Shown piece after piece: positions 4,557-61,075 of a stretch of 64,000 bases of DNA. Every line of letters starts with the position of its first letter. The stretch's first letter is position 1. Origin of the DNA: an uncultured Candidatus Saccharibacteria bacterium. Its GTDB lineage: Bacteria; Patescibacteriota; Minisyncoccia; UBA6257; 1-14-0-10-44-23. The notes under the pieces are model-generated. The model was not told the DNA's origin. It ran no database searches and worked only from the letters and a program-made list of their open reading frames with translations. The position numbers were made by a program, and so were the translations under genes. The stretch is from positions 219,922 to 283,921 of the forward strand of contig CAZJVT010000001.1 of assembly GCA_964549935.1 (NCBI GenBank), read 5' to 3'.

Positions 4557-4589
4557 ACCGTAATCGGAAAATAGATTAGGATTGCCCGC

Positions 4590-5693: not shown

Positions 5694-5697
5694 TCTA

Positions 5698-5728: not shown

Positions 5729-5732
5729 GGCT

Positions 5733-5771
5733 GCCTCCTCGTCCTCATATGGCGAGGCGGTTTCGTTTTTC
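5733..5771 (+). promoter_or_regulatory. Hairpin plus U-run immediately downstream of the promoter (attenuator-like leader or dus terminator)
   Basis: GCCTCCTCG..CGAGGCGG stem then TTTCGTTTTT. A second hairpin CTCTGCGCGGCAGAG follows. Confidence 0.35.
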
Positions 5772-5828
5772 TCTGCGCGGCAGAGAAGCGGAATGGCTGT
5801 GAGGTAGCTCTTTGGAAGGGAGGGACTC

Positions 5829-6539
5829 TTGGAGAGAGGTAATTTTGGGGACGGAGATAAGAGTTTGCCTCCCGAAGGCAGCTCTTCATCTGCTGTCGCC
5901 ACCGTAGAGCGGCAGAGGAGCCGTCGTGGCGGGCGAGCGGTCCGGGCAGCGAAGGACGATCGTCAGCGGCCGCCGGAGGACACGACGCACTCCGGCTTGA
6001 TGGCGGCGCTCGGCGACGAGACGAGGGCGACCGCTCTCCTCTCGAAGGTCTGCTTCCTCGCTCGCGCGAGGTACGGCATCCTGCCGCAAGACGCCGAGGA
6101 CATCTTCAGTGACTCGGTCGTGACGTACCTGAAGATCCACCAGCGCTACCCACTGAACGAGAATCACTTCGGGATTCTCGTCGGTGTGTTCCACAAGAAG
6201 TCGCTGGAGTTTCTGGACGGGCGTGACCGTAGCGTCCGCGTGGCAAGGAGATTCATCGCTCGTCTGCAGGCCGAGAGGCCCGAACTCGCTCGCGGCGAGG
6301 ATCCGAGCGGGGCTGCCGTCGAGCGTGTCCTTCGCGAGGAGGATGCGACGCTCATTCGGGCGGCGATCGCGTCTCTTCCTGTGGACACGCGCGAGCTTCT
6401 GCTTAAGCTCGCCGAGGGCGGGATGACTCGTCTGGAGATGATCGAGGCGCTCGGCATCAACCGCAACACGTTCGACACGCGACTGCGTGCCGTCCGGTTG
6501 CGACTCAAGGAAGCGCTCGAGAATTCCGGCGTGCTGTAG
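5829..6539 (+). CDS. ECF-type RNA polymerase sigma-70 factor
   Basis: Region 2 (DAEDIFSDSVVTYL) and region 4 (LPVDTRELLLKLAEGGMTRLEMIEALGINRNTFDTRLRAVRLRLK). GC is about 66%. The ORF as listed begins at a TTG; a more typical start is the ATG at 6000. Confidence 0.7.
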   Translation: MERGNFGDGDKSLPPEGSSSSAVATVERQRSRRGGRAVRAAKDDRQRPPEDTTHSGLMAALGDETRATALLSKVCFLARARYGILPQDAEDIFSDSVVTYLKIHQRYPLNENHFGILVGVFHKKSLEFLDGRDRSVRVARRFIARLQAERPELARGEDPSGAAVERVLREEDATLIRAAIASLPVDTRELLLKLAEGGMTRLEMIEALGINRNTFDTRLRAVRLRLKEALENSGVL

Positions 6540-6765
6540 CGCCGGAAAGGATTATATAATTGCCTTCGCGTGTGGGCCTTTCCGAAAGGAGAAACAACAC
6601 GCAGTAGAGATTAGGAGTGCGCCATCACGGCGCAGCACAGGAGGGGCACCGTCATACGGGCCCTTTTTGCTTTTTGTAAACAGTGGGGTTTTTATGAAAA
6701 GAGACAAGCCCGCGCGAGACGATCGCGCGGGCCGTGCGCCCCGAAAGGGGTGTGTCTTGCTGTGG

Positions 6766-7029
6766 CTACCGGCCACTCTCAGCGAGTTCGAGCTCCTTCT
6801 TCTCGATCTCGAGCGCTGCCTTGAGTGCCTTGGGGTCGACCTCGACCCCATAATGGCTCTCCCAGATGATGTGTTGGGCATGTTCGCGCCCGCACACCTG
6901 GCAATACCTCTCTGCATTGAGGTATTTGCTTTGGGTTTCGTTCTTCGGTGTCGCCATGACGATACCGAAGGCCGTCACCATCAGCACGCCGGCAAGTAGC
7001 CCGACCTTCTCGATGGTTCCGAGGTTCAT
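6766..7029 (-). CDS. Small membrane-anchored protein with a CxxC..H motif (hypothetical; possible anti-sigma-like partner)
   Basis: 87 aa. Perfect AGGAGG SD 7 nt upstream. N-terminal TM helix. CQVCGREHAQH motif. High GC, convergent with the ECF sigma gene. Confidence 0.45.
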   Translation of the reverse strand: MNLGTIEKVGLLAGVLMVTAFGIVMATPKNETQSKYLNAERYCQVCGREHAQHIIWESHYGVEVDPKALKAALEIEKKELELAESGR

Positions 7030-7058
7030 AGGGCTGGCCTCCTAACCAGTAAGCGTTT

Positions 7059-7076
7059 TATATCATATATGATATA
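7059..7076. promoter_or_regulatory. 18-bp perfect palindrome TATATCATATATGATATA (operator-like), copy 1
   Basis: Perfect palindrome. The identical 22-mer TATATCATATATGATATATTTT recurs at 17667. Confidence 0.45.
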
Positions 7077-12887: not shown

Positions 12888-12924
12888 TATGTGATTCGGA
12901 GGCTAATCCTCTGTTATACTTGAA

Positions 12925-15000
12925 TTGATGCTCCAAAAACGAGGTTTTACGCTGATCGAACTGCTTATTGTTATCGGCATCTTAGCGGTGCTGGCTACGG
13001 TTACCGTTCTTGTATTAAATCCAGCTGAGCTTTTTCGGCAGGCTCGCGATTCGCAGCGCCTGTCGGATATTGCTGTTTTGCAGCGGGTTTATGAATATTC
13101 ACAATTCGCGGGTTCTTCAGACAAGGACGGCCCCAATTTTCCGGATGATTCTTGTGTTACCGAGGCGAACCCTCGCATTTTCGTTTCTGTGCCGAGCGAC
13201 AACGGTGAGGTCACGCCGACACCGCCGTCCGGCTGGACCTATAACCGAGTTGCCAGTGTCAGCCTAAGAAAAACCGACGGTAACGGGTGGCTTCCGATTG
13301 ATTTGGCAGCTGCGGCTAGTGCGCTTGGCGGTTCATTTATCTCGCAGTTGCCGGTTGATCCGGTGAATACCTTTGCGAACGGTTTGTATTATTCATACAT
13401 CTGCGGGTCGTTTGAATTTAATGCAAAACTGGAATCTGCAAAGTTCCTCGCGCGGATGTCGGATGATTTAGGAGATGACACCGGATTGATTGAGGTCGGC
13501 GATGATTTGAGGATTTCTCCTGCGCGCCCTACGTCTGTTCAAAATCCCGAATCGCCGCCGGCAGCACCGCCGACAATCGCCGGGATTTCTCCGTCGAGCG
13601 CCGCGAACGATGGCGTGGTGAGCATCACTTCGATCACCGGAACCAATTTTGTTTCCGGGGCAACTGTCACGCTCGTAAAGAGCGGGCAGTCAACGATTGC
13701 CGGGTCCGGATTTACGGTAAGTAGCGGCACTTCAATAACCGGCGGTTCATTTAATATTAGTGGTGCGGTGGCCGGCGGATGGAATGTCGTGGTAACGAAT
13801 CTGGACAGTCAGTCGGCATCATTGAGCTCCGGCTTTACCGTCACGGCAGCCGGTCCGGTTGTGTTGCCAGCCCCGACGGTTTCGAGTATGAGTCCTACGA
13901 GCGTGGTTAATAATGCTGCTCTTTCACTCACCTCAATTACCGGCACGAACTTCGTTTCCGGGGCGACCGTGAAGTTGACGAAGTCCGGTCAGAGCGATAT
14001 TACCTGTACTAGCGTCAACTTCAGCAGCGCGACCGTGCTCACCGGTGGCTCTTGCAACACCGTCGGTGCTTCCGCGGGGACGTGGAGCCTGGTTGTGATG
14101 AATCCGGATGCGCAGACTGGCACGCTCACAAACGGATTCACAGTGACTGCCGCTCCGTCCGCGCCTACGGTAACTGCGCTTGGTGTTACGACCGGCGTTA
14201 ACAACGCTTCAGTCGCCATCACGCCGATTACCGGAACTGACTTCGCCACGAGTGGCGGCGTAACGGTTCAACTTGTCAAATCCGGCGAAAGCTCCATTAG
14301 TGCAACGAGCTGTTCGGTCAGTAATTCGACCTCGATAGTCAGTTGTTCCTTTGCTATCAGCGGTGCGGCAACCGGCGTGTGGAGCATCACGGTTACCAAT
14401 ACGACGAGCGGTTTGTCGGGTACCGGCGGTACTTTTACGGTAACCGCCCCGGTCGCGAGTTCATACGCTTCATGCAAAGCGATTAAGGACGCCCTCCCGG
14501 CGTCGACAGATGGCACCTACTCTATTAAGCCGACCGCTGCCGCCGCGTTTAGTGTGTATTGCGATATGAGCAATGGAGGATGGACGCGTATTATGACGCT
14601 TCATGATAAAGGCTCGATCACAGATAATATGCTGGGCATGGGTATCACTTTTAATAGATTCTGGGCGGTTAATGCCACTGATCATAGCTATGTGGGAAAC
14701 ATGCTTGCTACCTTTAGCGCTCTACAGTCCGCCGATCAAGGTTTGAACGCGGCTGCGAATGAGGCAGACAGAAAGGTGATGTTGATGGGGCCGGGAGCTT
14801 ATGGAGTTTGGAGAAAAGTGAGCGGTCCTGAGCCGTTTATCTGCAATTGGGGAACGGTAGAGATGATGGGTGCCGGGTATACCGATGCTGAAGGATGTGG
14901 TGACTACAATAACCTTACTGTTGGATATGATGATAGTTTGGGTTCAGGATGGAATCTTAACCATCGATTTGATGTAGAACTCTATGTCATGACGCAGTAA
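12925..15000 (+). CDS. Type IV pilin/pseudopilin with four IPT/TIG-like Ig repeats and a C-terminal fibrinogen-related-domain-like module
   Basis: Prepilin motif KRGFTLIELLIVIGILAVLA. Four repeats of about 90 aa (P..ISPSS..G..SITGTNFVSGATV.L.KSGQS). C-terminal CKAIKD..GTYSIKP..FSVYCDMSNGGWT matches the FReD A-subdomain signature. Confidence 0.7.
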   Translation: MMLQKRGFTLIELLIVIGILAVLATVTVLVLNPAELFRQARDSQRLSDIAVLQRVYEYSQFAGSSDKDGPNFPDDSCVTEANPRIFVSVPSDNGEVTPTPPSGWTYNRVASVSLRKTDGNGWLPIDLAAAASALGGSFISQLPVDPVNTFANGLYYSYICGSFEFNAKLESAKFLARMSDDLGDDTGLIEVGDDLRISPARPTSVQNPESPPAAPPTIAGISPSSAANDGVVSITSITGTNFVSGATVTLVKSGQSTIAGSGFTVSSGTSITGGSFNISGAVAGGWNVVVTNLDSQSASLSSGFTVTAAGPVVLPAPTVSSMSPTSVVNNAALSLTSITGTNFVSGATVKLTKSGQSDITCTSVNFSSATVLTGGSCNTVGASAGTWSLVVMNPDAQTGTLTNGFTVTAAPSAPTVTALGVTTGVNNASVAITPITGTDFATSGGVTVQLVKSGESSISATSCSVSNSTSIVSCSFAISGAATGVWSITVTNTTSGLSGTGGTFTVTAPVASSYASCKAIKDALPASTDGTYSIKPTAAAAFSVYCDMSNGGWTRIMTLHDKGSITDNMLGMGITFNRFWAVNATDHSYVGNMLATFSALQSADQGLNAAANEADRKVMLMGPGAYGVWRKVSGPEPFICNWGTVEMMGAGYTDAEGCGDYNNLTVGYDDSLGSGWNLNHRFDVELYVMTQ

Positions 15001-32484: not shown

Positions 32485-34608
32485 ATGTCTAGACAATATC
32501 CGTTAGAGAGAACTCGTAACTTTGGAATCGTCGCCCACATCGATGCGGGTAAGACGACCACGTCGGAGCGCGTTTTGTACTACACCGGTGTTTCTCACAA
32601 AATCGGTGAGGTGCACGAAGGTGATACCGTCATGGACTGGATGGAGCAGGAGCGCGAGCGTGGTATCACGATTACCTCGGCTGCGACGACCGCCTTCTGG
32701 GTCCCGACCTATGTCTCGAAAGAGGACAAGGCCAAAAACAAAGACGCCAATACCTACCGCTTCAATCTTATTGATACGCCGGGGCACATAGACTTTACCG
32801 TCGAGGTTAAGCGTTCTTTGCGCGTGCTCGATGGCGCCGTCGTCGTGTTCGATGGAGTTTCCGGCGTTGAGCCGCAGTCTGAAACCAACTGGCGTTACGC
32901 TGACGAATACAACGTTCCGCGTATTTGCTTTATTAACAAGCTCGATCGTATGGGTGCCAGCTTTGAAAAGAGCTTGCAGTCAATCGTCGACCGCTTGAAC
33001 CCAAACGCTATCGCTGCGCAGCTTCCGATCGGTTCAGAAGGCGGCTTTAGTGGTCTCATCGATTTGCTTACTCAAAAGGCCTACGCCTTTGAAGGTGATA
33101 AGGGAGAGAACATCAAAGAGATTCCAATTCCGGCGGACATGGCCGATGAGGTCAAGAAGCGCCACCACCAGCTCGTGGAAAAAATTGTTGAAAACGATGA
33201 CGTGCTGATGTCGAGCTACCTCGAAGGCAAAGTGCCTTCACTCGCGGAACTCAAGAAGGTTCTCCGTAAGGCTGTTCTCGCCGTTAAAATAATCCCGGTC
33301 TACACCGGTTCCGCTCTTAAGAACAAGGGAGTTCAGTTTGTACTCGACGCCGTCGTCGACTACTTGCCGAGCCCGCTCGACCTGCCGCCGGTTAAGGGTA
33401 TCGACCCGCACACCAACGCCGAGGTATTCCGTAAGCCTTCAGACGCCGAGCCGTTTACCGCGCTCGCGTTTAAGATTATGACGGATCCGTTCGTGGGTTC
33501 CTTAACCTTCTTCCGTGTGTACGCCGGTAGCTTGAAGCGCGGTAGCTACGTGTACAACTCGACGAAAGGTGAGATGGAGCGCGTTGGACGTATTTTGCGT
33601 ATGCACGCAAACGACCGTGAAGAAATCGAAGAGATTAACGCCGGTGATATCGGTGCCTTAGTCGGTATGAAAGACACGACGACCGGTGACACGCTCTGTG
33701 ACGAGCCGACCGCCGTTGTCCTTGAAAAGATCTCCTTCCCTGAACCGGTTATCTCTATCCGCGTTGAGCCGAAGACTAAAGCTGACCAGGAAAAGATGGG
33801 TATGGCGCTCCGCCGTCTTGCAGACGAGGATCCGACCTTCCGTGTTTCCGGTAATGCTGAAACGGGTGAGACGATTATCGCCGGTATGGGTGAGCTCCAC
33901 TTAGAAGTTCTCGTTGAGCGTATGCGCCGCGAGTTTAGCGTTGAGACAACGACCGGCCGTCCGCAGGTTTCATATAAGGAAACGATTTCCAAGAAGGCCG
34001 AAGCCGAAGGTAAGTACATCAAGCAGTCTGGAGGTCGTGGTCAGTACGGTCACGTCAAACTTCGTATCGAGCCGCTCGAGCGCGGCAAGGGCTTTGAGTT
34101 CGTCAACGAAATCAAAGGAGGTTCAATTCCGAAGGAGTTTATCGCTCCGGTTGAAAAGGGTATCGAGGAGGCTCTCACTCGCGGTATTCAGGCCGGGTAC
34201 CGAGTTATCGACGTCCGCGTCGAGCTCTACGACGGTAGCTACCACGAAGTTGACTCTTCGGAAGCCGCTTTCAAAATCGCTGCTTCAATGGGTTTCCAGG
34301 AGGCTTGTAAGATGGCTGCGCCGATTATCCTTGAGCCGATTATGAAGGTCCAGGTTATCGTCCCGACTGAATACATGGGTGACATCACCGGTGACATCAG
34401 CTCGAAGCGTGGCCGCATCGATGGCATGGGTGACCGTCCGATGGTTAAGGTTATCGACGCCTTCGTACCACTTTCCGAAATGTTCGGTTACGCGACCAAG
34501 CTTCGTTCGATGACACAGGGCCGTGGTAACTTCACGATGGAGTTCTACGCCTACGAGCCGGCTCCGGGCAACGTGACGAAGGAGATCATTGAGGGCAAGA
34601 GACAGTAA
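32485..34608 (+). CDS. fusA: Elongation factor G
   Basis: AHIDAGKTT and DTPGHIDF motifs, 707 aa, full domain set. Confidence 0.95.
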
Positions 34609-34650
34609 GAATAGTAGACAGTAGTTAGTAGATAGTAGACAGGGGATTTT

Positions 34651-34683
34651 AGCCGGGCGCGACATCTTGTCGCGCCCGGCTTT
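34651..34683 (+). terminator. Rho-independent terminator after fusA
   Basis: AGCCGGGCGCGACATCTTGTCGCGCCCGGCTTT. Confidence 0.7.
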
Positions 34684-34882
34684 GTCCAAGGAGTCAAACT
34701 CGGCTCAAAGTTTTTACAAACACTATTCGTATGAATAGTAGTGTTAATTCAGTATTTTATATTTTCAGAAAAGTTTAGCGCAGCAGCGCAAACGCCGAGT
34801 TTGTACTACGGGATTGCTTTTCTTTTTTCGAAAGAGTAGATTCTGTTGTGTCTGCGCGTGTCGTGGACAAGGAGGAGATACG

Positions 34883-35353
34883 TTGGCGTACAAAGAGCTG
34901 CCTGTCGAGAAGGGAAGGAAGTACCTGCCGCACATCTGGAACCTGTTCTTCAAGCCGCTCGACGAACCCGACTTTTTCGTCGAACCGTGGCGCAACTGCG
35001 AGCTCGGTGATTGTGCCGAGTTTCGCGAAGACGAAGTATCGTTCTTCGTGCTCGATGCAGAGCTGGTTGCCTTCCTCGATGGCGCGAGGGAAGGGCTGCA
35101 CCTCTTCGGTGCCTACAACCAGGTCAACGTCTGCCAGATGCGAGCCCGCGGCACCGTATCACGGGTGGATGATCCGGCCGAAATCGCACGGGTCAAGAAG
35201 AGCAGGCGGGCCAGCATCACGAAGCGAGTCGGCAAGACGGTCGATGGTCTCAGAGAGGAAGAGGCGGATGCGCGACGTGTCATCATCGACAGTGGCACCC
35301 TCTTCCGCTTCTCCGTCACCTCCTACGCGCACAAGATGTACGAACGGGGGTAG
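34883..35353 (+). CDS. Cassette ORF 1: hypothetical protein (high GC; TTG start)
   Basis: AAGGAGG SD 7 nt before the TTG. GC about 62%. Shares its 65-bp leader and 45-bp 3' hairpin repeat with the next module. The alternative-frame ORF 34848-35444 is judged spurious. Confidence 0.4.
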   Translation: MAYKELPVEKGRKYLPHIWNLFFKPLDEPDFFVEPWRNCELGDCAEFREDEVSFFVLDAELVAFLDGAREGLHLFGAYNQVNVCQMRARGTVSRVDDPAEIARVKKSRRASITKRVGKTVDGLREEEADARRVIIDSGTLFRFSVTSYAHKMYERG

Positions 35354-35361
35354 CAGCAACT

Positions 35362-35406
35362 GGGCCGTAGGCCGACCGTGGAGGTCGCCCTGCGGCCCTC
35401 ACGTTT
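35362..35406 (+). repeat. 45-bp 3' hairpin repeat, copy 1
   Basis: GGGCCGTAGGCCGACCGTGGAGGTCGCCCTGCGGCCCTCACGTTT, identical to 35992-36036. Confidence 0.6.
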
Positions 35407-35486
35407 TAATATTTAAGTTTGCTTTTCTTTTTTCAAAAGAGTAGATTCTGGTTGTGTCTGCGCGTGTCGCGGGCAAGGAGGAATCG

Positions 35487-35987
35487 ATGAATCACAAGAC
35501 GTATCTCGGGTGGGTCTCGCGACTGCGCGGGTTCGCTCTGCGCAGGCCGATCGACAGGGATGACCTCAAGGACGTCCTGGAGTATCTGGCGAAGCAGCTT
35601 CCGGAGCACGAGGAGAAGATCGCGCGCGCCGAGGCGAAGACCCAGGAGTTCGAGTTCGGAGGGCAGTGCTTTGTCCCCCTCGAGCGGGACGACAGGACGG
35701 GTGTCATCGTCCTGGAGTACGCCTACGGCAATGTCTGGTCGCCTCTTCACCGGCATGGGCGGTCAACCGATCCGAGTGAGCCGGGCGAGATCGTCGACAC
35801 CTACGACGGACTTCTGCTCGACCGCCACGCCAATGGCAGCGTGATCACTCATCGTGTCGGCGACCCTTCGATCGTTCATCTGCCCGGGAGCATTCATCAG
35901 CCGCTCATCTACGGCGGATGGGTCGGGAGCTTCTGGCATCCTGTCCGAGCGGAGGACCTCGACCTCGAGAAGCTGCTCGGGGTGTAG
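35487..35987 (+). CDS. Cassette ORF 2: cupin-like hypothetical protein (high GC)
   Basis: AAGGAGG SD 5 nt before the ATG. SPLHRHG..E and PGSIHQP resemble the two cupin motifs. GC about 63%. Confidence 0.45.
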   Translation: MNHKTYLGWVSRLRGFALRRPIDRDDLKDVLEYLAKQLPEHEEKIARAEAKTQEFEFGGQCFVPLERDDRTGVIVLEYAYGNVWSPLHRHGRSTDPSEPGEIVDTYDGLLLDRHANGSVITHRVGDPSIVHLPGSIHQPLIYGGWVGSFWHPVRAEDLDLEKLLGV

Positions 35988-35991
35988 CACC

Positions 35992-36036
35992 GGGCCGTAG
36001 GCCGACCGTGGAGGTCGCCCTGCGGCCCTCACGTTT
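35992..36036 (+). repeat. 45-bp 3' hairpin repeat, copy 2
   Basis: Identical to copy 1. Confidence 0.6.
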
Positions 36037-36075
36037 CAGTTTGCTTTTGCGAATTTTCAGCGCTACACTTTCTGT

Positions 36076-36438
36076 ATGAACTTATTTTCTTTGGCTCACG
36101 CGGCTACGAGCACTTGTACGGTAAATGGTGATCCGGTTGACTGCGCGCAACTTGGCAATGCAGTAAAAGGATTCGCTGCGTTTGCTTTTATTATCCCGGC
36201 GATTTTTGGAATCGTTGGTCTCGCCCTGTTTGTCTTCTGGATTATGATGCTCGTCCATGTTGCGAAGCATCCCATCAAAGATAAAGCCCTTTGGGTTATT
36301 GTCCTTTTAGTCGGTAACGGCGTCGGTGCCATTGTATATTATTTTGCAGTTAAGCGTCATTATGACGCCATGCAAGTAGCGCCTGGGAACGTGCCGCCGA
36401 CAGCCCCGATTCCGCCGTCCGCACCTCCAGCTATTTAA
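36076..36438 (+). CDS. Small membrane protein, PLDc_N-like
   Basis: Two TM helices. ALWVIVLLVGNGVGAIVYYF resembles the phospholipase-D/nuclease N-terminal membrane domain. Confidence 0.4.
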   Translation: MNLFSLAHAATSTCTVNGDPVDCAQLGNAVKGFAAFAFIIPAIFGIVGLALFVFWIMMLVHVAKHPIKDKALWVIVLLVGNGVGAIVYYFAVKRHYDAMQVAPGNVPPTAPIPPSAPPAI

Positions 36439-36452
36439 GAGAAGGAGGGGGA

Positions 36453-36480
36453 TTGACAATTTTTCGGCTGTACGTATAAT
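36453..36480 (+). promoter_or_regulatory. Consensus sigma70 promoter of tuf (TTGACA-N16-TATAAT) with a leader hairpin
   Basis: Exact hexamers. An AACCCGCTCGGCGGGTTT hairpin sits in the 70-nt leader. Confidence 0.55.
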
Positions 36481-36552
36481 TACGGGACATTTAGAACCCG
36501 CTCGGCGGGTTTGCATTTATTAATAAAACTAAATAATTTTTAAGTAACGCAT

Positions 36553-37755
<1,203 letters not shown>

Positions 37756-38138: not shown

Positions 38139-38158
38139 GGAGAATGATTGTATCTAGC

Positions 38159-38231
38159 AAAAGCCGCCGAAAGGCGGCTTTTGCGTTTTTGGCTCTCACG
38201 GCTCAACGGCGTACCGTTGAGCCGTTGAGGT
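38159..38231 (+). terminator. Terminator-repeat family copy 1 (hairpin + U-run, then a second 10-bp-stem hairpin)
   Basis: CAAAAGCCGCCGAAAGGCGGCTTTTGCGTTTTT then GGCTCAACGGCGTACCGTTGAGCC. Paralogous to 40958 and 41751. Confidence 0.6.
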
Positions 38232-38261
38232 TAGAAAGGCCTTCGTAGAGGCGTTTTTCTT

Positions 38262-38290
38262 TTGACCAGACGGTCAAAAAAGGATAATAT
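38262..38290 (+). promoter_or_regulatory. Sigma70-like promoter (TTGACC-N17-TAATAT)
   Basis: The -35 lies within the palindrome TTGACCAGACGGTCAA. Upstream of the 865-aa gene. Confidence 0.45.
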
Positions 38291-38339
38291 CAAGGGATAA
38301 CACCAGGCCTGAGGCCCGGTCCAATTAACCCTTATTAGT

Positions 38340-40937
38340 ATGCGTACAAACTTCAAGAAACTGATCGCGGTTTTAGTCATTAGTTTATTTGTAAGCGGGG
38401 TAGGGCAGGCTCCTGTTGCCAAGGCAACGACTTTGGCGGAGCTCCAGGCACAGCTCAACGCCTTGATCGCTCAGCTTGCGCAGATGCAGGCGGCGCAGAG
38501 CGGCAATCAAAACAGCCAGGGTAATTCCGGCAACAGTTACCGAGGCAACAGCAGCAACGGCTGCAGTTTCTCGCGTACTATTCGCATCGGTTCGATAGGT
38601 TCGGACGTGACTTGTTTGCAGGGAGTTTTAATTGAATCAGGATACTTAAAAGCGTCAGCGACGGGCTACTTTGGCGCACTCTCAAGTGCTGCCGTTCGTC
38701 AGTGGCAGGTGGAGCACGAGCTCGCTTCAACTGGTGTCTGGGGCAGTGCCGAGCGTACAGCGTATGCAGCTACTTTTGATAACGACACCAACGACGACAA
38801 CGACAATAATGGCAGTGGCTCAAACAGCAACTCCGGTAGCGGACAGATGTGTGCGCAGGTGATGCGTCAGTGCTGGAACGGTACCTATGTCGGTTACCGC
38901 CCGGGCACCTGCACCTACTACGACTGTCCGGCGTACGTCCCACCAACTACGACTCCAGCGCCGCCAAGCAGTTGGTCAGAAAGCGGTACTTTGCGCATCG
39001 CCTTGGATTCTACGAGCGTTCCAAGTTCCGTGGTACCGGGTTCTGTTGGCAATCAGGTTCTGCGTATCGTTGCAACTCCAATTTCGGGAAGCGCGCGCCT
39101 AACTGACCTGACGGTCACAGATACGATTAGCGGCGGATCCAATAATCTTTCTTCGTTCCAAAATTTCACGCTCTGGGGCGGAGTTGGCGATAGCCAGGTT
39201 GCTGGCCCTATTGCCATGACAATGAACGGCGTCAGTAATGGCACAATTAGTTTTAATCTGGCTGGGTCGGGATTACTACTGCTCGCTGGTAACAATTACA
39301 CGCTAACTATTAAAGCAGATGTTGCTACTACTAGCTCTGGTGCAGTTGCGGTTGGCTCATCGCATGTTTTCAGCGTAGCAAACTCCGGTCCAATCGCGTT
39401 TGCTACAAACGGCGTGACGAACGGTGGGCGCGACATAATCATTGGTTCAGTCGTTGGTAGCTCCATATATATCAGCAGCGGTACCAGTCAGAACGTAGCC
39501 CCGTCTGCAAGTATCAACGCAGCTTCGGGCTTCGCTAATCCAACGGTTGTCGCAGGGACAAACAATCAGCGTGTCGCGTCTTTCGTAATCACCGCTTCAA
39601 CTGCTCAAGCTATTCAAGTAGGTAGTTTGACCTTCTCTAAAACGGGTAGCGGGATTGCTCTCCAGAATCTTAAGGTGATGATTGGTGGTACCCAATTCGG
39701 GAATACGATTGCGACGGTTGGCGCAAATGTGAGCGCAGCAAGCTTCTCTAGCTACGCACCGATTTCAGTAAATGCGGGCGGTTCGCAGACCGTTGATGTG
39801 TATGCTGATGTGCTTTCGAGCGCAACTGCCGGTACCTACTATTCAGTTATTAGTTTGGTTAACTGGCAGGCAGGGGGAACAATCAGCGGTTCTGCGCTTG
39901 CTTTCCCCGGAACTGTCAGTGGTCAGAATGTTACGGTGACCGCCCAGACCGCCAGCGCACCGGGACACCTCACGCTCACGCTTGACTCGAGTACGCCGCC
40001 GGCCAAGTCGGTGGTCATGGGTTCAACTAACAACGAGGTTGCCCGCTTCCGATTCTACGCGGACAACAATGACGACTTGCGTATCACCGACCTCGTTATC
40101 AAAGATACGATTTCCGGTGGTGCGACAGGACTTGCCTCGTTCGAAAGTATGACGCTCTGGGATGGCAACACCCAGGTTGCCGGGCCGATTACGCCGACCA
40201 GCAACAGCGCAAGTTTGGCGACGATTAGCTTCTCTTTGAGCGGTAGCGGCGTCATCGTATCCCGCAACACTGCAAAGACGCTGACGCTCAAAGGGACTGT
40301 TTCGACCTTTACCTCGGGCGGTGCAGTTTCTAACTCCCAGCACGTGTTTTCGATTAATGCGAATAGTGATATTACCGTTCGCGGTGTAAATTATTCCGCC
40401 ACGCCCGTCACCGTTACCGGTGCTCCGGTTTCAGGTTACTCGATGAAGGTGCTTCGAACCTCGCAGGGAGTAACAGCTTCAGTGATTGGCTCAAGCAGCA
40501 GCCGCGTTCGCACCGCAGTGGACGATGTCGCTACGCTCAACATCACGGCTGACAGTGCCTACCAGGTTGCGCTTCAGGTGGTTAAGCTCTATATGACCGG
40601 TGGTGCGCTTGCGAATGTCTCCGGTGTTACCGTGGACTTAATCGACAGCAATACCAACACCCCGATTGGCAGCGCGACAGCGCAGACCTGCAACGCGGTT
40701 AATGCCGGCTGCACCCTGACCTTCAGCCCGAACTTTACGATTAGTGCCGGTACGACCAAGCAGATGAAGATCCGCATCAACTCCTCGTCGTTTACTAATA
40801 GCGGCGGCGCTGATGGGTTGCAGATACTGCTTAATACAACCGATGCTATCCAGATCGGCGACGGTACGGCGAACAATATCCCAGCCCTTGATTCAACGGC
40901 GGTTCCATTTATGGTCGCGCAGATTTCGTACGAATAA
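38340..40937 (+). CDS. Large secreted surface protein with a peptidoglycan-binding-like domain and T/S/G/A-rich Ig-like repeats (S-layer/adhesin-like)
   Basis: Signal peptide. Coiled-coil segment LAELQAQLNALIAQLAQMQAA. PGBD-like CLQGVLIESGYL..GYFGALSSAAVRQWQ. Long low-complexity beta-rich repeats. Confidence 0.55.
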   Translation: MRTNFKKLIAVLVISLFVSGVGQAPVAKATTLAELQAQLNALIAQLAQMQAAQSGNQNSQGNSGNSYRGNSSNGCSFSRTIRIGSIGSDVTCLQGVLIESGYLKASATGYFGALSSAAVRQWQVEHELASTGVWGSAERTAYAATFDNDTNDDNDNNGSGSNSNSGSGQMCAQVMRQCWNGTYVGYRPGTCTYYDCPAYVPPTTTPAPPSSWSESGTLRIALDSTSVPSSVVPGSVGNQVLRIVATPISGSARLTDLTVTDTISGGSNNLSSFQNFTLWGGVGDSQVAGPIAMTMNGVSNGTISFNLAGSGLLLLAGNNYTLTIKADVATTSSGAVAVGSSHVFSVANSGPIAFATNGVTNGGRDIIIGSVVGSSIYISSGTSQNVAPSASINAASGFANPTVVAGTNNQRVASFVITASTAQAIQVGSLTFSKTGSGIALQNLKVMIGGTQFGNTIATVGANVSAASFSSYAPISVNAGGSQTVDVYADVLSSATAGTYYSVISLVNWQAGGTISGSALAFPGTVSGQNVTVTAQTASAPGHLTLTLDSSTPPAKSVVMGSTNNEVARFRFYADNNDDLRITDLVIKDTISGGATGLASFESMTLWDGNTQVAGPITPTSNSASLATISFSLSGSGVIVSRNTAKTLTLKGTVSTFTSGGAVSNSQHVFSINANSDITVRGVNYSATPVTVTGAPVSGYSMKVLRTSQGVTASVIGSSSSRVRTAVDDVATLNITADSAYQVALQVVKLYMTGGALANVSGVTVDLIDSNTNTPIGSATAQTCNAVNAGCTLTFSPNFTISAGTTKQMKIRINSSSFTNSGGADGLQILLNTTDAIQIGDGTANNIPALDSTAVPFMVAQISYE

Positions 40938-40957
40938 GAGGGTAGCCAGCGAGATCC

Positions 40958-40994
40958 ACAAAAGCCGCCGCCGGGCGGCTTTTGGGTTTTTGGC
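40958..40994 (+). terminator. Terminator-repeat family copy 2 (first hairpin only)
   Basis: CAAAAGCCGCCGCCGGGCGGCTTTTGGGTTTTTGGC. Confidence 0.6.
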
Positions 40995-41034
40995 GCACTC
41001 CTGGTATAGTTTTAGTAATAACCTTTAAATTAAT

Positions 41035-41745
41035 ATGAGAAATTTAGGCGGCGGTGGTTTAGATGATATCAATCAGGCGGGATTACCGGGTGGTGAGGGC
41101 TCTGATCCAACCCTGGAGGTAAAAGTGCGAGAGATTCTTGAAAGTCTTGAGCATGAAGCCATCGGGAAAGGTTACTTCGCCCTTATTCCCAAGGCTGATC
41201 AGTCTTTTATTGATGGCATAAGTGCCGATCAAAAATCTTATTATCCGGATATGTCTGCCGAGGAGGTGCGCGAAATGATTTCACGTAACTGGCTTGGGCG
41301 AGCGCGTATTTTTGACGCTATCGCAACGGCTCGAGGATTTCGTGCGGTCCAGGAGCTCTCGGATGCTAATCCCGCAGAAGTGGCCGCCCTGACTCGTAGC
41401 GCATCGTATGTTTTTATGGATGAAAAAGTTTTCACTCCTTCGGGCGGCACACTAAATTATTTTAAGATTGCGGGACGCCATTCAAACATTGCTGATGGTA
41501 ATTCCAGCGGCGTGCAGGTTCGCGGGTCCATTGCTATCGGCAGGCGTTTGGAATTGAGTGGTGCTCCGATAAGTAGTACGACAAGTCTTCAGCAATTATT
41601 TATTCGCCACGTCGACAGAACAGGAGGTGGGAAAAGTATTCTTGATGTAAGCGCAGAGGTTCGCGATGGCACGCAGATGATCAATGAACAGACTCTTAGG
41701 AAGGTGTTAGATGCTGCGCGCAAAAATAAGGAATTGCCAGGATAA
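41035..41745 (+). CDS. Hypothetical protein
   Basis: 236 aa with no recognisable motif. Gly-rich N-terminus. Confidence 0.4.
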   Translation: MRNLGGGGLDDINQAGLPGGEGSDPTLEVKVREILESLEHEAIGKGYFALIPKADQSFIDGISADQKSYYPDMSAEEVREMISRNWLGRARIFDAIATARGFRAVQELSDANPAEVAALTRSASYVFMDEKVFTPSGGTLNYFKIAGRHSNIADGNSSGVQVRGSIAIGRRLELSGAPISSTTSLQQLFIRHVDRTGGGKSILDVSAEVRDGTQMINEQTLRKVLDAARKNKELPG

Positions 41746-41750
41746 CTTAA

Positions 41751-41824
41751 CAAAAGCCGCCGCAAGGCGGCTTTTGTGTTTTTAGCTCTCACGGCTCAAC
41801 GGTACGCCGTTGAGCCGTTGGGGA
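41751..41824 (+). terminator. Terminator-repeat family copy 3 (both hairpins)
   Basis: CAAAAGCCGCCGCAAGGCGGCTTTTGTGTTTTT then GGCTCAACGGTACGCCGTTGAGCC. Confidence 0.6.
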
Positions 41825-41842
41825 TTGGAAGGCCTATGCTTA

Positions 41843-41871
41843 TTGACTTTTTTGTACTTTAATTCTATAAT
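41843..41871 (+). promoter_or_regulatory. Sigma70 promoter (TTGACT-N17-TATAAT)
   Basis: Near-consensus hexamers upstream of the high-GC gene at 41939. Confidence 0.5.
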
Positions 41872-41938
41872 ATTCCGCATTGTCCGCGCAGTGCGGATGA
41901 CGGTTTCGGGCGTAACCCGGACCCCAAGGAGGGGAACG

Positions 41939-42547
41939 ATGAGGCTTTCAACTGATGTTCTGGTGCAGATCGTGCGCCCGCTGGTGGGGTCCAAGGACCT
42001 CGGCATGCGAGGAACCGCGATCGTGCTGGCGATGAACCCGGTGTTGGACGCGGCGCTCGACTTCTTCGGGACCCCGGCGCACAGCGGAGGTCCGGGCGAG
42101 CCGCAGCGCACGGGCTTCTATGTGAGCGTGGGAGATCAACGCAGCGGCGACGTGGTCCACACGGTTCGCTTCGGCGACATGATGGGGCCGGGCTACGACG
42201 GAGAGCGCCGACGCCGCTACGAGCGCAACGCTGCGAACAAGGTCCGGTTCGCCATCGATCGAGACGTCGAGACGAGCTGGGACATCCGGGACGACAAGGC
42301 AGATCCGCCGATCTATCCGGGTAGCGTCCGGATGATCGACTGGCACTTGGCGGTCTCGGGTCTTTCGAGCGGCCACAAGGACCAGGCGGTCGTGCTGGTG
42401 GGAGGAATGTACCTCCACGTCTGCGGGTTCTTCCTCGGTCGCGGCCCTGGAATCGGCCCGACCAAGGCCTTCGGCATCGCAGAACGGACCCAGGATCCAG
42501 AGTTCGAACCGTTCCTCGCGTTCGTCCGCTCGCGCGGGATCTTCTAG
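41939..42547 (+). CDS. High-GC hypothetical protein (202 aa)
   Basis: AAGGAGG SD 5 nt before the ATG. GC about 66%. The listed ORF starts upstream at 41810 across the promoter. Antisense ORFs 41865-42602 and 41948-42583 are judged spurious. Confidence 0.45.
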   Translation: MRLSTDVLVQIVRPLVGSKDLGMRGTAIVLAMNPVLDAALDFFGTPAHSGGPGEPQRTGFYVSVGDQRSGDVVHTVRFGDMMGPGYDGERRRRYERNAANKVRFAIDRDVETSWDIRDDKADPPIYPGSVRMIDWHLAVSGLSSGHKDQAVVLVGGMYLHVCGFFLGRGPGIGPTKAFGIAERTQDPEFEPFLAFVRSRGIF

Positions 42548-42650
42548 CGGGCACGGGCGCCTGACCGCCCAGTACATATCCAAGCCTTAAGGCGCGGTTC
42601 ATTCCGCGTGCAGCAACCCGGCCCCCGGGACGAAACGACTCGTCAGGGGG

Positions 42651-42782
42651 TCTTTCGTTTTTTGCCCTTGCTCATCCTTAAAGCACCGCGTCAGGCTTGC
42701 CCGTCTCTGGAGGGCGCTTTTATAATTGAGTAGCAAGGCGCACACCCGGCGCTTGCGAGAACGCAAGCGGTAAGGGTGTTTC
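42651..42782. repeat. Intergenic repeat family copy B
   Basis: Homologous to 22511-22637 (CCGCGTCAGG, GCTTTTATAATT, CACCCGGCG, GCAAGCGGTAAGGGTGTTTC). Confidence 0.45.
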
Positions 42783-42864
42783 CTTGATTTAATTCATTGA
42801 CAATTTTTTGCCGTGGGAGTTGAATGAGGTTGTTGACCCGTGGTGGGTCATGAAGGAGGAGCTC

Positions 42865-43299
42865 ATGGGCTTCTTGAGTAGGCTCAAGGATGCGGGTCTC
42901 GCGCTCGTCGTTGCGCTGATGTCCGTCTTCGTGTTCTGGGTCGTCGTCAGTCTCGTGAGGACGAACGTGCCGATGTCGTACTCAATGGGGATCGGCCTGC
43001 CGGCGGTCTGGCGCGGACTCGATCTGTTCATCGCGCCGATCTGGGTGCTTGCATCGAGCACCTACTACGACGTCGTTCAGCGCTTCGTCGATGACGCCAA
43101 GGCCCGCAACTTCTGGGTCGAGGGGTACATCTGGATCACGCTCGTCTCCGGAGTCGTCGCGCTCGTCTGGGGGCTGCTTCCCGGAGTCGTGATCCTGCTC
43201 GGAGTCGGGCTCGGCCTGACCCTGGTGCATGTCGTCTGGTTCCTGCTGATGTCGGGCTTCGCCCGACTGATGGAAAAGGGGATCCGCGGAATCTCGTAG
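42865..43299 (+). CDS. High-GC 4-TM membrane protein (hypothetical)
   Basis: AAGGAGG SD 5 nt before the ATG at 42865. GC about 62%. Confidence 0.45.
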   Translation: MGFLSRLKDAGLALVVALMSVFVFWVVVSLVRTNVPMSYSMGIGLPAVWRGLDLFIAPIWVLASSTYYDVVQRFVDDAKARNFWVEGYIWITLVSGVVALVWGLLPGVVILLGVGLGLTLVHVVWFLLMSGFARLMEKGIRGIS

Positions 43300-43371
43300 C
43301 GTGGGCCGCCGGCGATCATTGGGTCGCTTCGGCGGCCCTCTGATTTTGTAGAAAATAAGAAAGGGCTTGAC

Positions 43372-43493
43372 CCCCCCCACGCCAAGAGAGGAGTAAAGTA
43401 TTTTTTGTAAACATTTCTCTATTTGAGACCACCCAAATTATCTGCGCATTATTGCGTGCGGATCAGGAAAATACTCCTCTCTTGGTGTGGGGC
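43372..43493. repeat. MITE-like element with about 17-bp terminal inverted repeats CCCCACRCCAAGAGAGG, flanked by direct CTTGAC
   Basis: Left CCCCACGCCAAGAGAGG, right CCTCTCTTGGTGTGGGG. CTTGAC(C) occurs on both flanks. The TIR core is shared with 56745-56842. Confidence 0.45.
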
Positions 43494-43522
43494 TTGACCG
43501 AAAAACCGACCTCGTGTATACT
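43494..43522 (+). promoter_or_regulatory. Sigma70 promoter of the rplC...secY cluster (TTGACC-N17-TATACT)
   Basis: Good hexamers with 17-nt spacing, 128 nt upstream of rplC. Confidence 0.5.
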
Positions 43523-43649
43523 ATCCCAACGGTTAGGTATAGGTCTGCCGGACGCACAGTCCGCCATCGACCTGCAAAAACTAGTGATTCAGTCCTCAAG
43601 AGGAGCTGGCATTAGTCCAGCTTTTTTGTTTACCTAACTCAAACATTCT

Positions 43650-49195: not shown

Positions 49196-49714
49196 ATGTC
49201 TAAAATTGTAAACACAATTGAAAAGGTAGTCGTTAACACCAGCTTCGGTAAGCTTTCGACTAACACTCCGGACTTTGACGGTAAGGTTCTTCCGACTATC
49301 GAAGAGCAGTTCTCAGCTATCGTTGGCCAAAAGGGTCAGCGCCGCCCGGCTCGTATTTCGATCTCCGGTTTCAAGCTCCGCTCCGGCATTATCATCGCCC
49401 TTAAGGCGACCCTTCGCGGTGCCCGTGCCCGTCAGTTTGTTTCGCGTACGGTCAACATCGTTATGCCGCGTGTCCGTGACTTCCACGGTATTAAGACCTC
49501 CGGTATCGACCGCGACGGCAACCTTACGTTTGGTATTAAGGAGCACGCCGTTTACCCGGAAATCGTTCTTGAAAAAGTTAAGTTCCCGTTTGGTATGGAG
49601 GTTACTATCGTTCCGAAGGCCCCGATGAAGCGTGAGGCAGCCCTCGCGTTTTATAAGGAGCTCGGTATTCCATTTGAAAAAACGGTCGCAACGACTAAAA
49701 AAGGAAACAAATAA
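49196..49714 (+). CDS. rplE: 50S ribosomal protein L5
   Basis: 172 aa with the L5 signature (RDFHGIK.SGIDRDGNLTFGIKE). Confidence 0.92.
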   Translation: MSKIVNTIEKVVVNTSFGKLSTNTPDFDGKVLPTIEEQFSAIVGQKGQRRPARISISGFKLRSGIIIALKATLRGARARQFVSRTVNIVMPRVRDFHGIKTSGIDRDGNLTFGIKEHAVYPEIVLEKVKFPFGMEVTIVPKAPMKREAALAFYKELGIPFEKTVATTKKGNK

Positions 49715-49717
49715 GGT

Positions 49718-49903
49718 ATGGCTAAAAAATCCATCATTGCCCGAGCAAATAAGAAGCCGAAGTTTAGCAGCCGCACTGTCCGCCGCTGTTTCCGCTGCGG
49801 CCGTAAGCATGGTTACATGCGCTTGTTTGGTATTTGCCGTATCTGTTTCCGCGAGATGGCCGGTCGCGGCGAAATCCCAGGTGTTAAGAAAGCTTCTTGG
49901 TAA
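49718..49903 (+). CDS. rpsZ: 30S ribosomal protein S14 type Z (zinc-binding)
   Basis: 61 aa with [23 protein letters not shown]. Confidence 0.9.
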
Positions 49904-49907
49904 ATTT

Positions 49908-50288
49908 ATGTACATTGATCTACTTACAAAACTGAAGAACGCCCAGAAGGCGAAGAAGGCCAGCATTAAGATGGCGTACTCCAACATGGACTTTGCCGTC
50001 GCCGAACTTTTGGCAGCCCGTGGTTTGGTTGCTTCAGTAACGAAGAAGGGCCGTATGCCGAAGCGCGTTATGGAGGTTGAGCTTAAATATGAAAACGGTG
50101 TCGGTGGTATTGGCGGCATGAAGCTTCTCTCTGTACCGAGCCGCCGCTTGTATGTCGGTTACGACAAGCTCCGCACAGTCCGCCAGGGTTTCGGTCTTTC
50201 TGTGATTTCAACGCCGAAGGGTATTATGACTTCGTCACAAGCCCGTAAAGAAAAGGTCGGAGGCCAATTGTTATTTGAAATCTGGTAA
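49908..50288 (+). CDS. rpsH: 30S ribosomal protein S8
   Basis: Start at MYIDLLTKLKNAQ. The listed ORF from 49632 is an upstream in-frame read-through. Confidence 0.9.
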   Translation: MYIDLLTKLKNAQKAKKASIKMAYSNMDFAVAELLAARGLVASVTKKGRMPKRVMEVELKYENGVGGIGGMKLLSVPSRRLYVGYDKLRTVRQGFGLSVISTPKGIMTSSQARKEKVGGQLLFEIW

Positions 50289-56738: not shown

Positions 56739-56744
56739 GATATA

Positions 56745-56842
56745 CCCCCACACCAAGAGATAGCGCGTTTCAATAAAGCTGGTTAGCAAGGGCTAGCGCT
56801 TTGTGTGTGGATAACAAAGTAGGGAATCTCTTGGTGTGGGGG
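56745..56842. repeat. MITE-like element with 16-bp terminal inverted repeats CCCCCACACCAAGAGA
   Basis: Left CCCCCACACCAAGAGA, right TCTCTTGGTGTGGGGG. Flanked by TATA and followed directly by TATACT. The TIR core is shared with 43372-43493. Confidence 0.45.
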
Positions 56843-56880
56843 TATACTGAAGTAAACAGTAAACTATTACATTTTTAACC

Positions 56881-60182: not shown

Positions 60183-60295
60183 AGTACTTGTCTCATGAAA
60201 TCTCGGTTAAAGGTCCCGTTGGGGCTACTGGGGTGGAGTGGGCATGTAACGCTAGCTTGGGCTTAACGGCCTGGGTTAGGTGGAGGGAGAGAGTC

Positions 60296-61075
60296 ATGGT
60301 CAATCGCAGGAAGTCGTGCATCGCGTCGATCGCGATGGTTCTCGGATTCGTCTTCGGCTGGTGGGGGTTCTCCCCCGACGCCAAGGCCGGCGAGGGCCAG
60401 CTCTTCATCGGCTCGCGGCCGGTGGCGGAAGCGGGCGGCGGCTCGGCCAGCGCCGAGGCGTACCAGAAGTCGGAGGCCAAATCCCGGCGCATCGTGTTCA
60501 ACAACAACACGGGAAGCGAGGCGACCTTCGACCTCACGATCCGCGGCGTCAAGATGACGGGCGCCAGCTTCTATTGGCAGCGCGCCAACACGACGATCAA
60601 GGCGGGCGACGGCTTCTTCAAGGTCCTGCCGCCCGGCGAGTACGCGGGCAGCGCCCGGGATCTCGACGGGAATGTCGTTTCGAAGAAGAAGTTCGTGGTG
60701 ACTTCGAAGCGCGACTACGTGGTGCCGATCGGCACGGCGGTCACTCCGCCGACGCCGACTGGGACGGGGATCCTCCTCGTCAACAACACCGGCGTGACGT
60801 GGAACGTGCTGTTCACGCTCAGCAGTCCGTCGTACCTCGGCGGGGGTGAGCTCGGCTACACCTTCGCAAGTCAGGTTCCGAACCTGGCGATCGCCTCGGC
60901 GCTTCCGCCGACGGGCGATCTCGTCTCGTACACCATCAAGGTGACGACGATGACGACCCCAGCGGTGACGATCACTGCGGGCCCCGGAACGGGAGTCACG
61001 GCGTCGGACGGGAAGACCCGGACGATCGTGCTGGTGAGAAACGCGGATGGAACTTACGGGGTGAAACCCCTCTAG
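60296..61075 (+). CDS. High-GC secreted hypothetical protein (259 aa)
   Basis: GGAGGGAG SD 6 nt before the ATG. Signal peptide. GC about 65%. The listed ORF starts at 60188 across the leader. Confidence 0.45.
   Translation: MVNRRKSCIASIAMVLGFVFGWWGFSPDAKAGEGQLFIGSRPVAEAGGGSASAEAYQKSEAKSRRIVFNNNTGSEATFDLTIRGVKMTGASFYWQRANTTIKAGDGFFKVLPPGEYAGSARDLDGNVVSKKKFVVTSKRDYVVPIGTAVTPPTPTGTGILLVNNTGVTWNVLFTLSSPSYLGGGELGYTFASQVPNLAIASALPPTGDLVSYTIKVTTMTTPAVTITAGPGTGVTASDGKTRTIVLVRNADGTYGVKPL

Follow-up and report, generated by a model that had tools for sequence, protein, structure and literature searches.

The model we propose for the DNA between the translation genes fusA and tuf in a 64,000-nt stretch of a Patescibacteria chromosome (contig CAZJVT010000001.1 of assembly GCA_964549935.1, positions 219,922 to 283,921; hereafter the window) combines two observations: the presence of two adjacent open reading frames (ORFs) that are unrelated to each other, and the repetition around them of the same flanking sequences. 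The two dissimilar ORFs, which we call ORF1 and ORF2, are flanked by two leaders of 65 nt that are about 92% identical and by two 48-nt hairpin repeats that agree at 47 of 48 positions. The modules would be autonomous promoter-ORF-terminator units, comparable to the morons and the promoter-early stem-loops (PeSLs) of bacteriophages, and their flanks would act as portable homology. We give this interpretation about an even chance of being correct, mainly because the repeat copies were counted in the 64-kb window alone. By its sequence, the chromosome is that of a member of the Patescibacteria (candidate phyla radiation, CPR; Paceibacteria-like); its elongation factor G (EF-G) shares 73-76% identity with proteins that bear the names Candidatus Harrisonbacteria, Candidatus Liptonbacteria or Patescibacteria. 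The gene order assigned by Pfam is rpsL-rpsG-fusA-[ORF1, ORF2, ORF3]-tuf-rpsJ, and the features of the locus are the following.

32485..34608, + strand: fusA (EF-G, 707 aa), the left conserved flank (Pfam GTP_EFTU/EFG_II-IV/EFG_C).
34651..34681, + strand: hairpin terminator of fusA, an inverted repeat with a 14-bp perfect stem (-35.3 kcal/mol, z = -6.5).
34812..34876, + strand: leader copy 1, identified by the repeats, with the putative promoter TTGCTT (34814-34819), 17-nt spacer, TAGATT (34837-34842), then a GC-rich 5' untranslated region (5'UTR) and the Shine-Dalgarno (SD) sequence AAGGAGGA.
34883..35353, + strand: ORF1, 156 aa, TTG start (homologues, AlphaFold model, GC content of third codon positions or GC3).
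35359..35406, + strand: hairpin repeat H1 (stem 35362-35398) with the tail TCACGTTTT, a putative terminator or 3' stabiliser (repeat and fold).
35417..35482, + strand: leader copy 2, identified by the repeats, with TTGCTT (35419-35424), 17-nt spacer, TAGATT (35442-35447) and the SD AAGGAGGA.
35487..35987, + strand: ORF2, 166 aa, predicted cupin fold (HMMER, alignment, AlphaFold model, GC3).
35989..36036, + strand: hairpin repeat H2 (stem 35992-36028), 47/48 identical to H1 (with its fold).
36039..36069, + strand: right junction, made of GTTTGCTTTT, which corresponds to the first 10 nt of the leader, followed by the promoter-like TTGCTT-N17-TACACT of ORF3 (inferred promoter).
36076..36438, + strand: ORF3, a 120-aa membrane protein with a PLDc_N domain (Pfam PF13396, E = 8e-7).
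36453..36512, + strand: native tuf promoter TTGACA-16-TATAAT (12/12 in the promoter scan) and 5'UTR hairpin, 93.5% identical to the relative L030 described below.
36553..37755, + strand: tuf (EF-Tu, Pfam), the right conserved flank.

The two conserved leaders reported by an initial annotation of this DNA were recovered. Their 5' blocks (34814-34845 and 35419-35450) agree at 31 of 32 positions and their 3' blocks (34845-34876 and 35451-35482) at 30 of 32, the blocks being separated by a 1-nt indel (one inserted G); the copies differ at five positions and each ends in AAGGAGGA. The hairpin repeat (35359-35406 and 35989-36036) was found as well, but it does not begin right at the stop codon, as had been described: it starts 5 nt after the stop of ORF1 and 1 nt after that of ORF2. 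Both the leader and the hairpin patterns have exactly two matches in the window when up to 3 mismatches are tolerated, where shuffled sequence gives an expectation of 0.00. The hairpin folds at -32.5 kcal/mol (z = -4.4, with 0 shuffles equally stable); the structure has two stems, of 10 bp and 5 bp, separated by a symmetric 1x1 mismatch and closed by a 5-nt loop, and it is devoid of bulged bases. No significant structure was detected in the 5'UTRs of the two leaders (z = -0.6 and -1.2). As for the third partial leader copy that had been placed at 36040-36060, only the 10-mer GTTTGCTTTT at 36039-36048 was retrieved, and no longer copy. This 10-mer occurs four times in the window for 0.33 expected, which is suggestive but weak, given its shortness; a variant with one mismatch, GATTGCTTTT, lies at the left edge of the modules, and the module junctions share the 10-nt direct repeat G(T/A)TTGCTTTT.

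Repeats of 45-65 nt situated less than 600 nt apart in a metagenome assembly could have provoked a chimeric join, and the arrangement would then be an artefact of the metagenome-assembled genome. However, the Logan contig L001 (SRR14271336), which comes from an independent assembly, is identical over 1,056 bp extending from upstream of leader 1 into ORF2. Since the succession leader 1-ORF1-hairpin-leader 2-ORF2 is the same in both, the junctions are not the artefact of one assembly; moreover, the repeats are far below the typical read length and the synteny of the flanks with relatives is perfect. We therefore consider an assembly artefact hardly credible.

Between the two coding sequences (35354-35486) the order of the elements is a stop codon, the stem-loop, a 10-nt AT-rich spacer, TTGCTT-N17-TAGATT, a GC-rich 5'UTR, AAGGAGGA and ATG. 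From this order, the leader would combine a weak σ70-like promoter, a 5'UTR and a strong SD, whereas the GC-rich hairpin with its T-rich tail probably terminates or stabilises the transcript. The insertion between fusA and tuf was correctly located by the initial annotation, but it does not lie inside a single str operon: with a terminator proper to fusA and a consensus promoter proper to tuf, the "operon" is already split into separate transcription units, and the insertions fall between them. The Rfam search of the locus by E-value gave spurious miRNA matches only, and that of the whole window gave 0 matches at the gathering threshold. The interval that separates leader 1 from the fusA terminator contains about 90 nt of AT-rich DNA enclosed by a perfect inverted repeat of 10 nt (CAAACTCGGC / GCCGAGTTTG; 34695-34803; -34 kcal/mol, z = -4.5), which may be a decayed small mobile element.

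The two cargo genes are unrelated, as had been claimed. No similarity was detected between ORF1 and ORF2 by BLASTP (E = 3.4) and their predicted folds are different, which excludes tandem paralogy; the hypothesis that they are paralogues was rejected on these grounds. ORF1 belongs to a family of conserved proteins of about 160 residues, for which 27 homologues were found and an alignment was built, and it has no Pfam, NCBIfam or PHROG model. The alignment of its N-terminus with those of the homologues confirms the TTG start, and consequently the leader is non-coding. Its AlphaFold model (predicted local distance difference test, pLDDT, 92.5) gave Foldseek matches in the PDB to PNPOx-like, Nim-like and FMN/FAD-binding split barrels, with TM values of 0.5-0.6; ORF1 thus models as a conserved family with a split-barrel flavin/PNPOx-like fold. 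ORF2 is rare: a word-indexed database of 5.8 billion proteins returned the self-match only, and a full HMMER search returned eight representatives. The family alignment reveals the invariant residues His88, His90, Glu101, His131 and His137 (H-x-H...E...H...H), and the model (pLDDT 90.7) matches cupin structures that include DddK and cysteine dioxygenase. ORF2 therefore models as a predicted cupin metalloprotein, in agreement with its first description as cupin-like.

The composition of the cargo is deviant. The GC3 amounts to 0.77 for ORF1 (z = 3.7) and 0.81 for ORF2 (z = 4.4), for 0.583 ± 0.051 in 34 native genes; ORF3 has a native-like GC content with a GC3 of 0.46. In several other contigs, the homologues of ORF1 also have a GC content above that of their loci. 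These high-GC3 outliers, together with the absence of the genes from relatives, make the ORF1 and ORF2 modules look horizontally acquired. The ATG of ORF3 comes 7 nt after its TACACT -10-like hexamer and is not preceded by a Shine-Dalgarno sequence (36064-36078); this short distance and the lack of SD make a leaderless mRNA possible.

One could suppose that ORF1 and ORF2 were transferred en bloc, already adjacent and already flanked, from a donor of higher GC content (CPR, phage or plasmid) whose standard expression signals would be the repeated flanks. The GC richness, relative to the host, of both ORFs, of the hairpin and of the 3' half of the leader is consistent with it, as are the high GC content of all the hairpin-bearing cargo ORFs considered below and the elevated GC of the ORF1 homologues. 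Nevertheless, no donor emerges: a scan of 185,579 species genomes (a set that does not contain this genome) with a hairpin 20-mer produced 16 matches, all due to chance and set in different flanking sequence. No PHROG or NCBIfam family recognises the cargo, tblastn gave no match among 50,697 phage and 72,556 plasmid records, and ORF1 has no relative in IMG/VR. In addition, the leader and the hairpin do not accompany the ORF1 homologues at six other loci, and the homologues of ORF1 and ORF2 are never neighbours in the other loci examined. A transfer in one block is clearly unlikely in our view.

The comparison of the window with five loci from four closer relatives reveals what occupies the fusA-tuf spacer in this lineage.

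L030 (GCA_964641225.1), EF-G identity 96%: one unrelated 173-aa high-GC ORF.
L031/L033, EF-G identity 92%: empty spacer of 92 nt.
L034, EF-G identity 92%: a gene with a Bro-N domain.
L035, EF-G identity 85%: empty spacer of 84 nt.

The locus is therefore not identical in relatives, the spacer differing in every one examined. No homologue of ORF1, ORF2 or ORF3 lies in any of these spacers (L030-L035), and ORF3 has no tblastn match anywhere in these loci. The sole related sequence is a distant cupin of the ORF2 family, situated in L035 in another interval of the ribosomal cluster, between rpsJ and rplC. In L030 this second spacer contains an aldo-keto reductase; L031, L034 and L035 have small ORFs there, and the window has four ORFs. 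As the contents of the fusA-tuf spacer differ among relatives and those of the rpsJ-rplC spacer vary in every genome, both spacers are, on this comparative sequence evidence, lineage-specific hotspots of recurrent insertion. Other examples of the genes inserted in both spacers carry clear TTGAC-N17-TATAAT-like promoters. In the window, the extra ORFs of the rpsJ-rplC spacer (38139-43649) and the additional hairpin found there are as follows.

38340-40937: 865-aa PG_binding_1 protein.
41035-41745: ORF of 236 aa.
41939-42547: high-GC ORF of 202 aa.
42865-43299: high-GC 144-aa membrane protein.
43303..43338, + strand: third hairpin of the family in the window, diverged, GGGCCGCCGGCGATCATTGGGTCGCTTCGGCGGCCCTCTGATTTT (-30.4 kcal/mol, z = -3.9).

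The hairpin is indeed found on other cargo. In L030, the 173-aa ORF is followed by GGCCGCCGAGCCGACCTGAGGGTCGCTCCGGCGGCCCTCTCGTTT, which is 79-84% identical to the window hairpin and adopts the same fold, and in the window the diverged copy at 43303-43338 lies directly 3' of the 144-aa membrane ORF. The idea that the repeats would recur elsewhere is thus upheld for the hairpin, present in diverged form behind two further unrelated ORFs, but not for the leader, which is limited to two copies, those of ORF1 and ORF2, and does not accompany the other hairpin-bearing cargo. The four cargo ORFs of this hairpin family are mutually unrelated and all of high GC content; the two leaders and three hairpins of the window all lie within the two variable spacers. 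In the alignment of the four hairpins, 95% of the outer-stem cells are paired, and the changes in the stem comprise one A-U replaced by C-G on both sides and one U.G replaced by C-G.

A second terminator behaves in a similar manner. The rpsJ terminator hairpin AGCAAAAGCCGCCGAAAGGCGGCTTTTGCGTTTT, whose sequence is the same in L030, exists in three copies in the window (38159, 40960 and 41752), which bracket the 865-aa and 236-aa ORFs; in two of these copies the repeat is longer, 88 nt, and includes a second hairpin (38155-38242 and 41748-41835). Moreover, P0029, a homologue of ORF2 with 52% identity, is located immediately downstream of an rpsJ-type terminator on contig L036. Taken with the distant cupin of L035, this position suggests that the cargo moves between both hotspots with copies of a terminator at the joints. 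The metagenome scan carried out with the 865-aa protein yielded only one relative, non-syntenic and 33% identical.

These observations bear on a purely local origin of the repeats, in which a tandem duplication in situ would have been followed by replacement of the coding sequence, or in which gene conversion would have homogenised the flanks of adjacent insertions, the flanks having no role in mobility. The restriction of the leader copies to this spacer fits such an event, and the near-identity of the hairpins and the mere five differences between the leaders are those expected of a recent local copy. Furthermore, orthologous intergenic structures diverge fast in this lineage, as shown by the fusA terminator, whose sequence differs between the window and L030, so that the L030 hairpin could be an orthologous resident of the spacer. 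Orthology, however, cannot explain a hairpin of the same family behind another ORF in the other spacer (43303-43338), and the triplicated rpsJ terminator around unrelated cargo reproduces the same pattern independently. In any case, a recombination route is needed to exchange an ORF exactly from SD to stop codon and leave its flanks intact. For these reasons, a local event appears unlikely.

Several other observations concern, at least in part, the rpsJ-rplC spacer and its counterparts. In L035 (8040-8612), a (GT)n microsatellite separates the rpsJ terminator from the cupin homologue, which is called as two ORFs (62 aa and 82 aa) and may be frameshifted or phase-variable. A family resembling miniature inverted-repeat transposable elements (MITEs), about 105-120 nt long, occurs in the window at 43376-43493 and 56741-56846 and in L030 at 12891-13021; its AT-rich interior is enclosed by terminal inverted repeats of 20 nt (CCCCCACACCAAGAGAG...CTCTCTTGGTGTGGGG), and two copies, when folded, reach -54 to -56 kcal/mol. 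A duplicated (C)TTGAC flanks two of the copies and serves at the same time as -35 box for the native promoter that follows, namely that of rplC in the window and that of tuf in L030. Between the fusA-tuf spacer of L030 and the rpsJ-rplC spacer of the window, identity is about 80% over the block that extends from the hairpin as far as the left inverted repeat. Upstream of rplC, a conserved and structured-looking leader (43500-43640; 15660-15800 in L030) has no Rfam match.

The architecture of the modules is cassette-like, as the initial annotation stated, but the integron-like mechanism suggested with it did not stand. The likeness to integrons and to clusters of attC sites lacking an integrase (CALINs) resides in the tandem, same-orientation arrangement of small unrelated ORFs, each followed by an imperfect palindrome, and in a cargo of small enzymes. 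According to the definitions of Nivina et al. 2016 (PMC5027507), an attC site is characterised by the pairing of R'' RYYYAAC with R' GTTRRRY, by extrahelical bases, by an unpaired central spacer and by a variable terminal structure. Pairs RYYYAAC...GTTRRRY separated by 40-150 nt are absent from both strands of the interval 34600-36560; no AAC is common to the sequences 5' of the three hairpins of the window (GCAGCAACT, TGTAGCACC and TCGTAGCGT); and the fold of the hairpin contains neither extrahelical bases of the attC type nor an unpaired central spacer. No integrase, recombinase or transposase domain was identified by Pfam in the 29 non-ribosomal ORFs scanned in the window, in the ORFs around the locus or in the loci of the relatives, eight ORFs of the window having no Pfam match at all, and no intI, attI or Pc (the common cassette promoter) was found at the array. 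Whereas integron cassettes are promoterless and expressed from a common Pc, each ORF here has its own promoter-like leader. Membership of the integrons is therefore unsupported. So is that of MITEs or transposons, which are defined by terminal inverted repeats and a target-site duplication: no inverted repeat exists at the ends of the modules, and only the 10-nt direct repeat is found at the junctions.

The hairpins also recall the repetitive extragenic palindromes (REPs) and the bacterial interspersed mosaic elements (BIMEs) by being GC-rich palindromes placed just 3' of stop codons, repeated, and possibly able to stabilise or terminate transcripts. REPs, however, are present in tens to hundreds of copies per genome and are associated with a RAYT gene (REP-associated tyrosine transposase), whereas here the 64 kb contain three copies of the hairpin, and neither a RAYT nor a Y1 transposase was detected. 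Another parallel is offered by integration hotspots between core genes, for accessory genes vary there among close relatives within the same interval; the difference lies in the position of the present spacers, inside the str/S10 ribosomal cluster, and in single-gene cargo units with duplicated terminators.

A novel or divergent integron-like system, acting site-specifically, would account for part of the data. The hairpin, with or without the GTTTGCTTTT core, would constitute a folded single-stranded DNA site recognised by a recombinase encoded elsewhere in the genome, and cassettes would be inserted serially at intergenic attachment sites of the ribosomal gene cluster. The sharp edges of conservation at the SD and at the stop codon, the excess of GTTTGCTTTT at the module junctions (the left edge having the variant GATTGCTTTT) and the occurrence of a structurally conserved hairpin family behind four unrelated cargo ORFs in two hotspots and two genomes speak in its favour. 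So does the existence elsewhere of ORF1 homologues within arrays of small same-strand ORFs: in contig L026 (JGI Ga0480578_0012228, 1700-9800), the homologue belongs to an array of about 11 such ORFs in which a nearly invariant 27-nt motif, GTTCCGATGTCGTCCCAGACGGTGAGC, is repeated nine times, each time between the preceding terminator and the -35 of the next promoter. Against such a system stand the lack of a recombinase domain in the scanned ORFs and in the relatives' loci, the lack of an AAC/GTT core pair and of extrahelical bases, the promoter-like leaders borne by the cassettes, and a leader that is not common to the other hairpin-bearing cargo. Neither the leader, nor the L026 motif, nor a degenerate pattern of the hairpin had a match in IMG/VR (0 in each case), and the L026 motif is also absent from the window. 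We judge a site-specific system improbable. In its most elaborate form, it would be an undescribed CPR cassette-exchange system whose single-stranded recombination site is provided by the hairpin family and whose recombinase is encoded elsewhere; its targets would be the promoter-proximal sites of the ribosomal cluster, and L026-type arrays would be the storage form of the same or of a sister system. This extension, too, is improbable. Another context of an ORF1 homologue, contig L002 (JGI Ga0172374_1000127, 1600-5230), displays repeated intergenic modules around unrelated small ORFs, with a 179-nt repeat at 1605 and 2837 (96%), a 67-nt repeat formed of a stop codon plus hairpin at positions 3790 and 4438, and another of 40 nt at 3863 and 5161.

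The systems closest to our modules come from phages. PeSLs are mobile regulatory cassettes of T4-type phages, repeated beside ORFans where the genome is plastic; indels between close relatives have them as boundaries, and they recombine into mini-circles made of an ORF plus a PeSL (PMC2839356, Arbiol et al. 2010; PMC4122927, Comeau et al. 2014). A moron is a gene absent from related genomes, whose GC content deviates and which has a promoter and a terminator of its own (PMC3594210, Cumby, Davidson & Maxwell 2012). The elements described here are, like the PeSLs, stop-to-start composites of a stem-loop, an AT-rich stretch, σ70-like -35 and -10 boxes and an SD, a likeness that in our case is one of sequence only. 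Both flank unrelated small ORFans and mark the boundaries of indels or replacements in plastic regions among core genes: between the window and L030, different cargo is bounded 3' by homologous hairpins, and copies of the rpsJ terminator bracket window-specific genes. In contrast to the genome of a T4-type phage, the present one is a cellular CPR chromosome with ribosomal genes and no phage matches; two or three copies are seen in 64 kb, where a phage genome has about 50; the match to a promoter is weak, and the stem-loop is found upstream of the -35 only. The modules share with morons the insertion of single extra genes between conserved genes, the predicted promoter and terminator, the deviant GC content and the absence of the genes from that position in L030-L035. 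They differ from them by their fusA and tuf flanks, by the absence of phage genes in the window and by near-identical shared flanks, which are outside the definition of a moron.

In the mechanism we favour, general homologous recombination between the repeated terminator/promoter elements would insert, delete and swap the cargo. A circle, or a fragment, with a single ORF and a single composite element would integrate at a resident copy, thereby duplicating the element and generating the observed array. Alternatively, recombination after DNA uptake would take place between the extremely conserved fusA, tuf, rpsJ and rplC genes, acting as long homology arms. Neither route would need a dedicated recombinase.

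Several facts weigh against this model. Homologous recombination on repeats of 45-65 nt is inefficient in model bacteria. The promoter-like boxes of the leader match the consensus at 8 of 12 positions, below the threshold of the promoter scan, and the T-tract of the hairpin begins 5 nt past the stem, which is atypical of an intrinsic terminator. PeSLs and morons are phage features, whereas the searches gave no phage or plasmid link for either the cargo or the repeats. The status of portable element is founded on four hairpins in two genomes, with two leader and three hairpin copies in the 64 kb, and the covariation of the hairpin family, judged from three distinct sequences, does not reach statistical significance (79/500 shuffles). 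Finally, a site-specific mechanism would also accommodate the abrupt edges of conservation and the occurrence of the 10-nt GTTTGCTTTT at three junctions.

Elsewhere in the window, two further high-GC3 outliers lie outside the ribosomal cluster, each behind a strong TTGACA-N17 promoter: a gene for an extracytoplasmic function (ECF)-type σ70-like protein (5829-6539, GC3 0.77) and a 295-aa ORF with no family match (60188-61075, GC3 0.85). Degenerate tandem repeats with steps of 84-141 nt (61284-62166) belong to a 736-aa ORF (61175-63385) that has a weak CBM_14 chitin-binding match and is probably a repetitive surface protein. A putative minus-strand insertion of 268 aa at 49313-50119 was dismissed as an antisense ORF artefact over rplE/rpsN, and ARAGORN detected no tRNA gene in the 64 kb.

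In conclusion, the modules are best classed as moron/PeSL-type units, known from phages and encountered here in a CPR chromosome at ribosomal-cluster hotspots. If this is true, the logic of the phage-type regulatory cassette, which associates a promoter and a terminator, also shapes the turnover of accessory genes in streamlined CPR chromosomes, and it does so inside the gene cluster that is usually treated as the most syntenic region of bacterial genomes. The fusA-tuf and rpsJ-rplC intervals serve as marker blocks for the binning and the phylogeny of CPR bacteria, yet they hold strain-variable foreign genes in this lineage. Both spacers are defined places in which to seek gene flow, and possibly host-interaction or detoxification functions, in these uncultured episymbionts.

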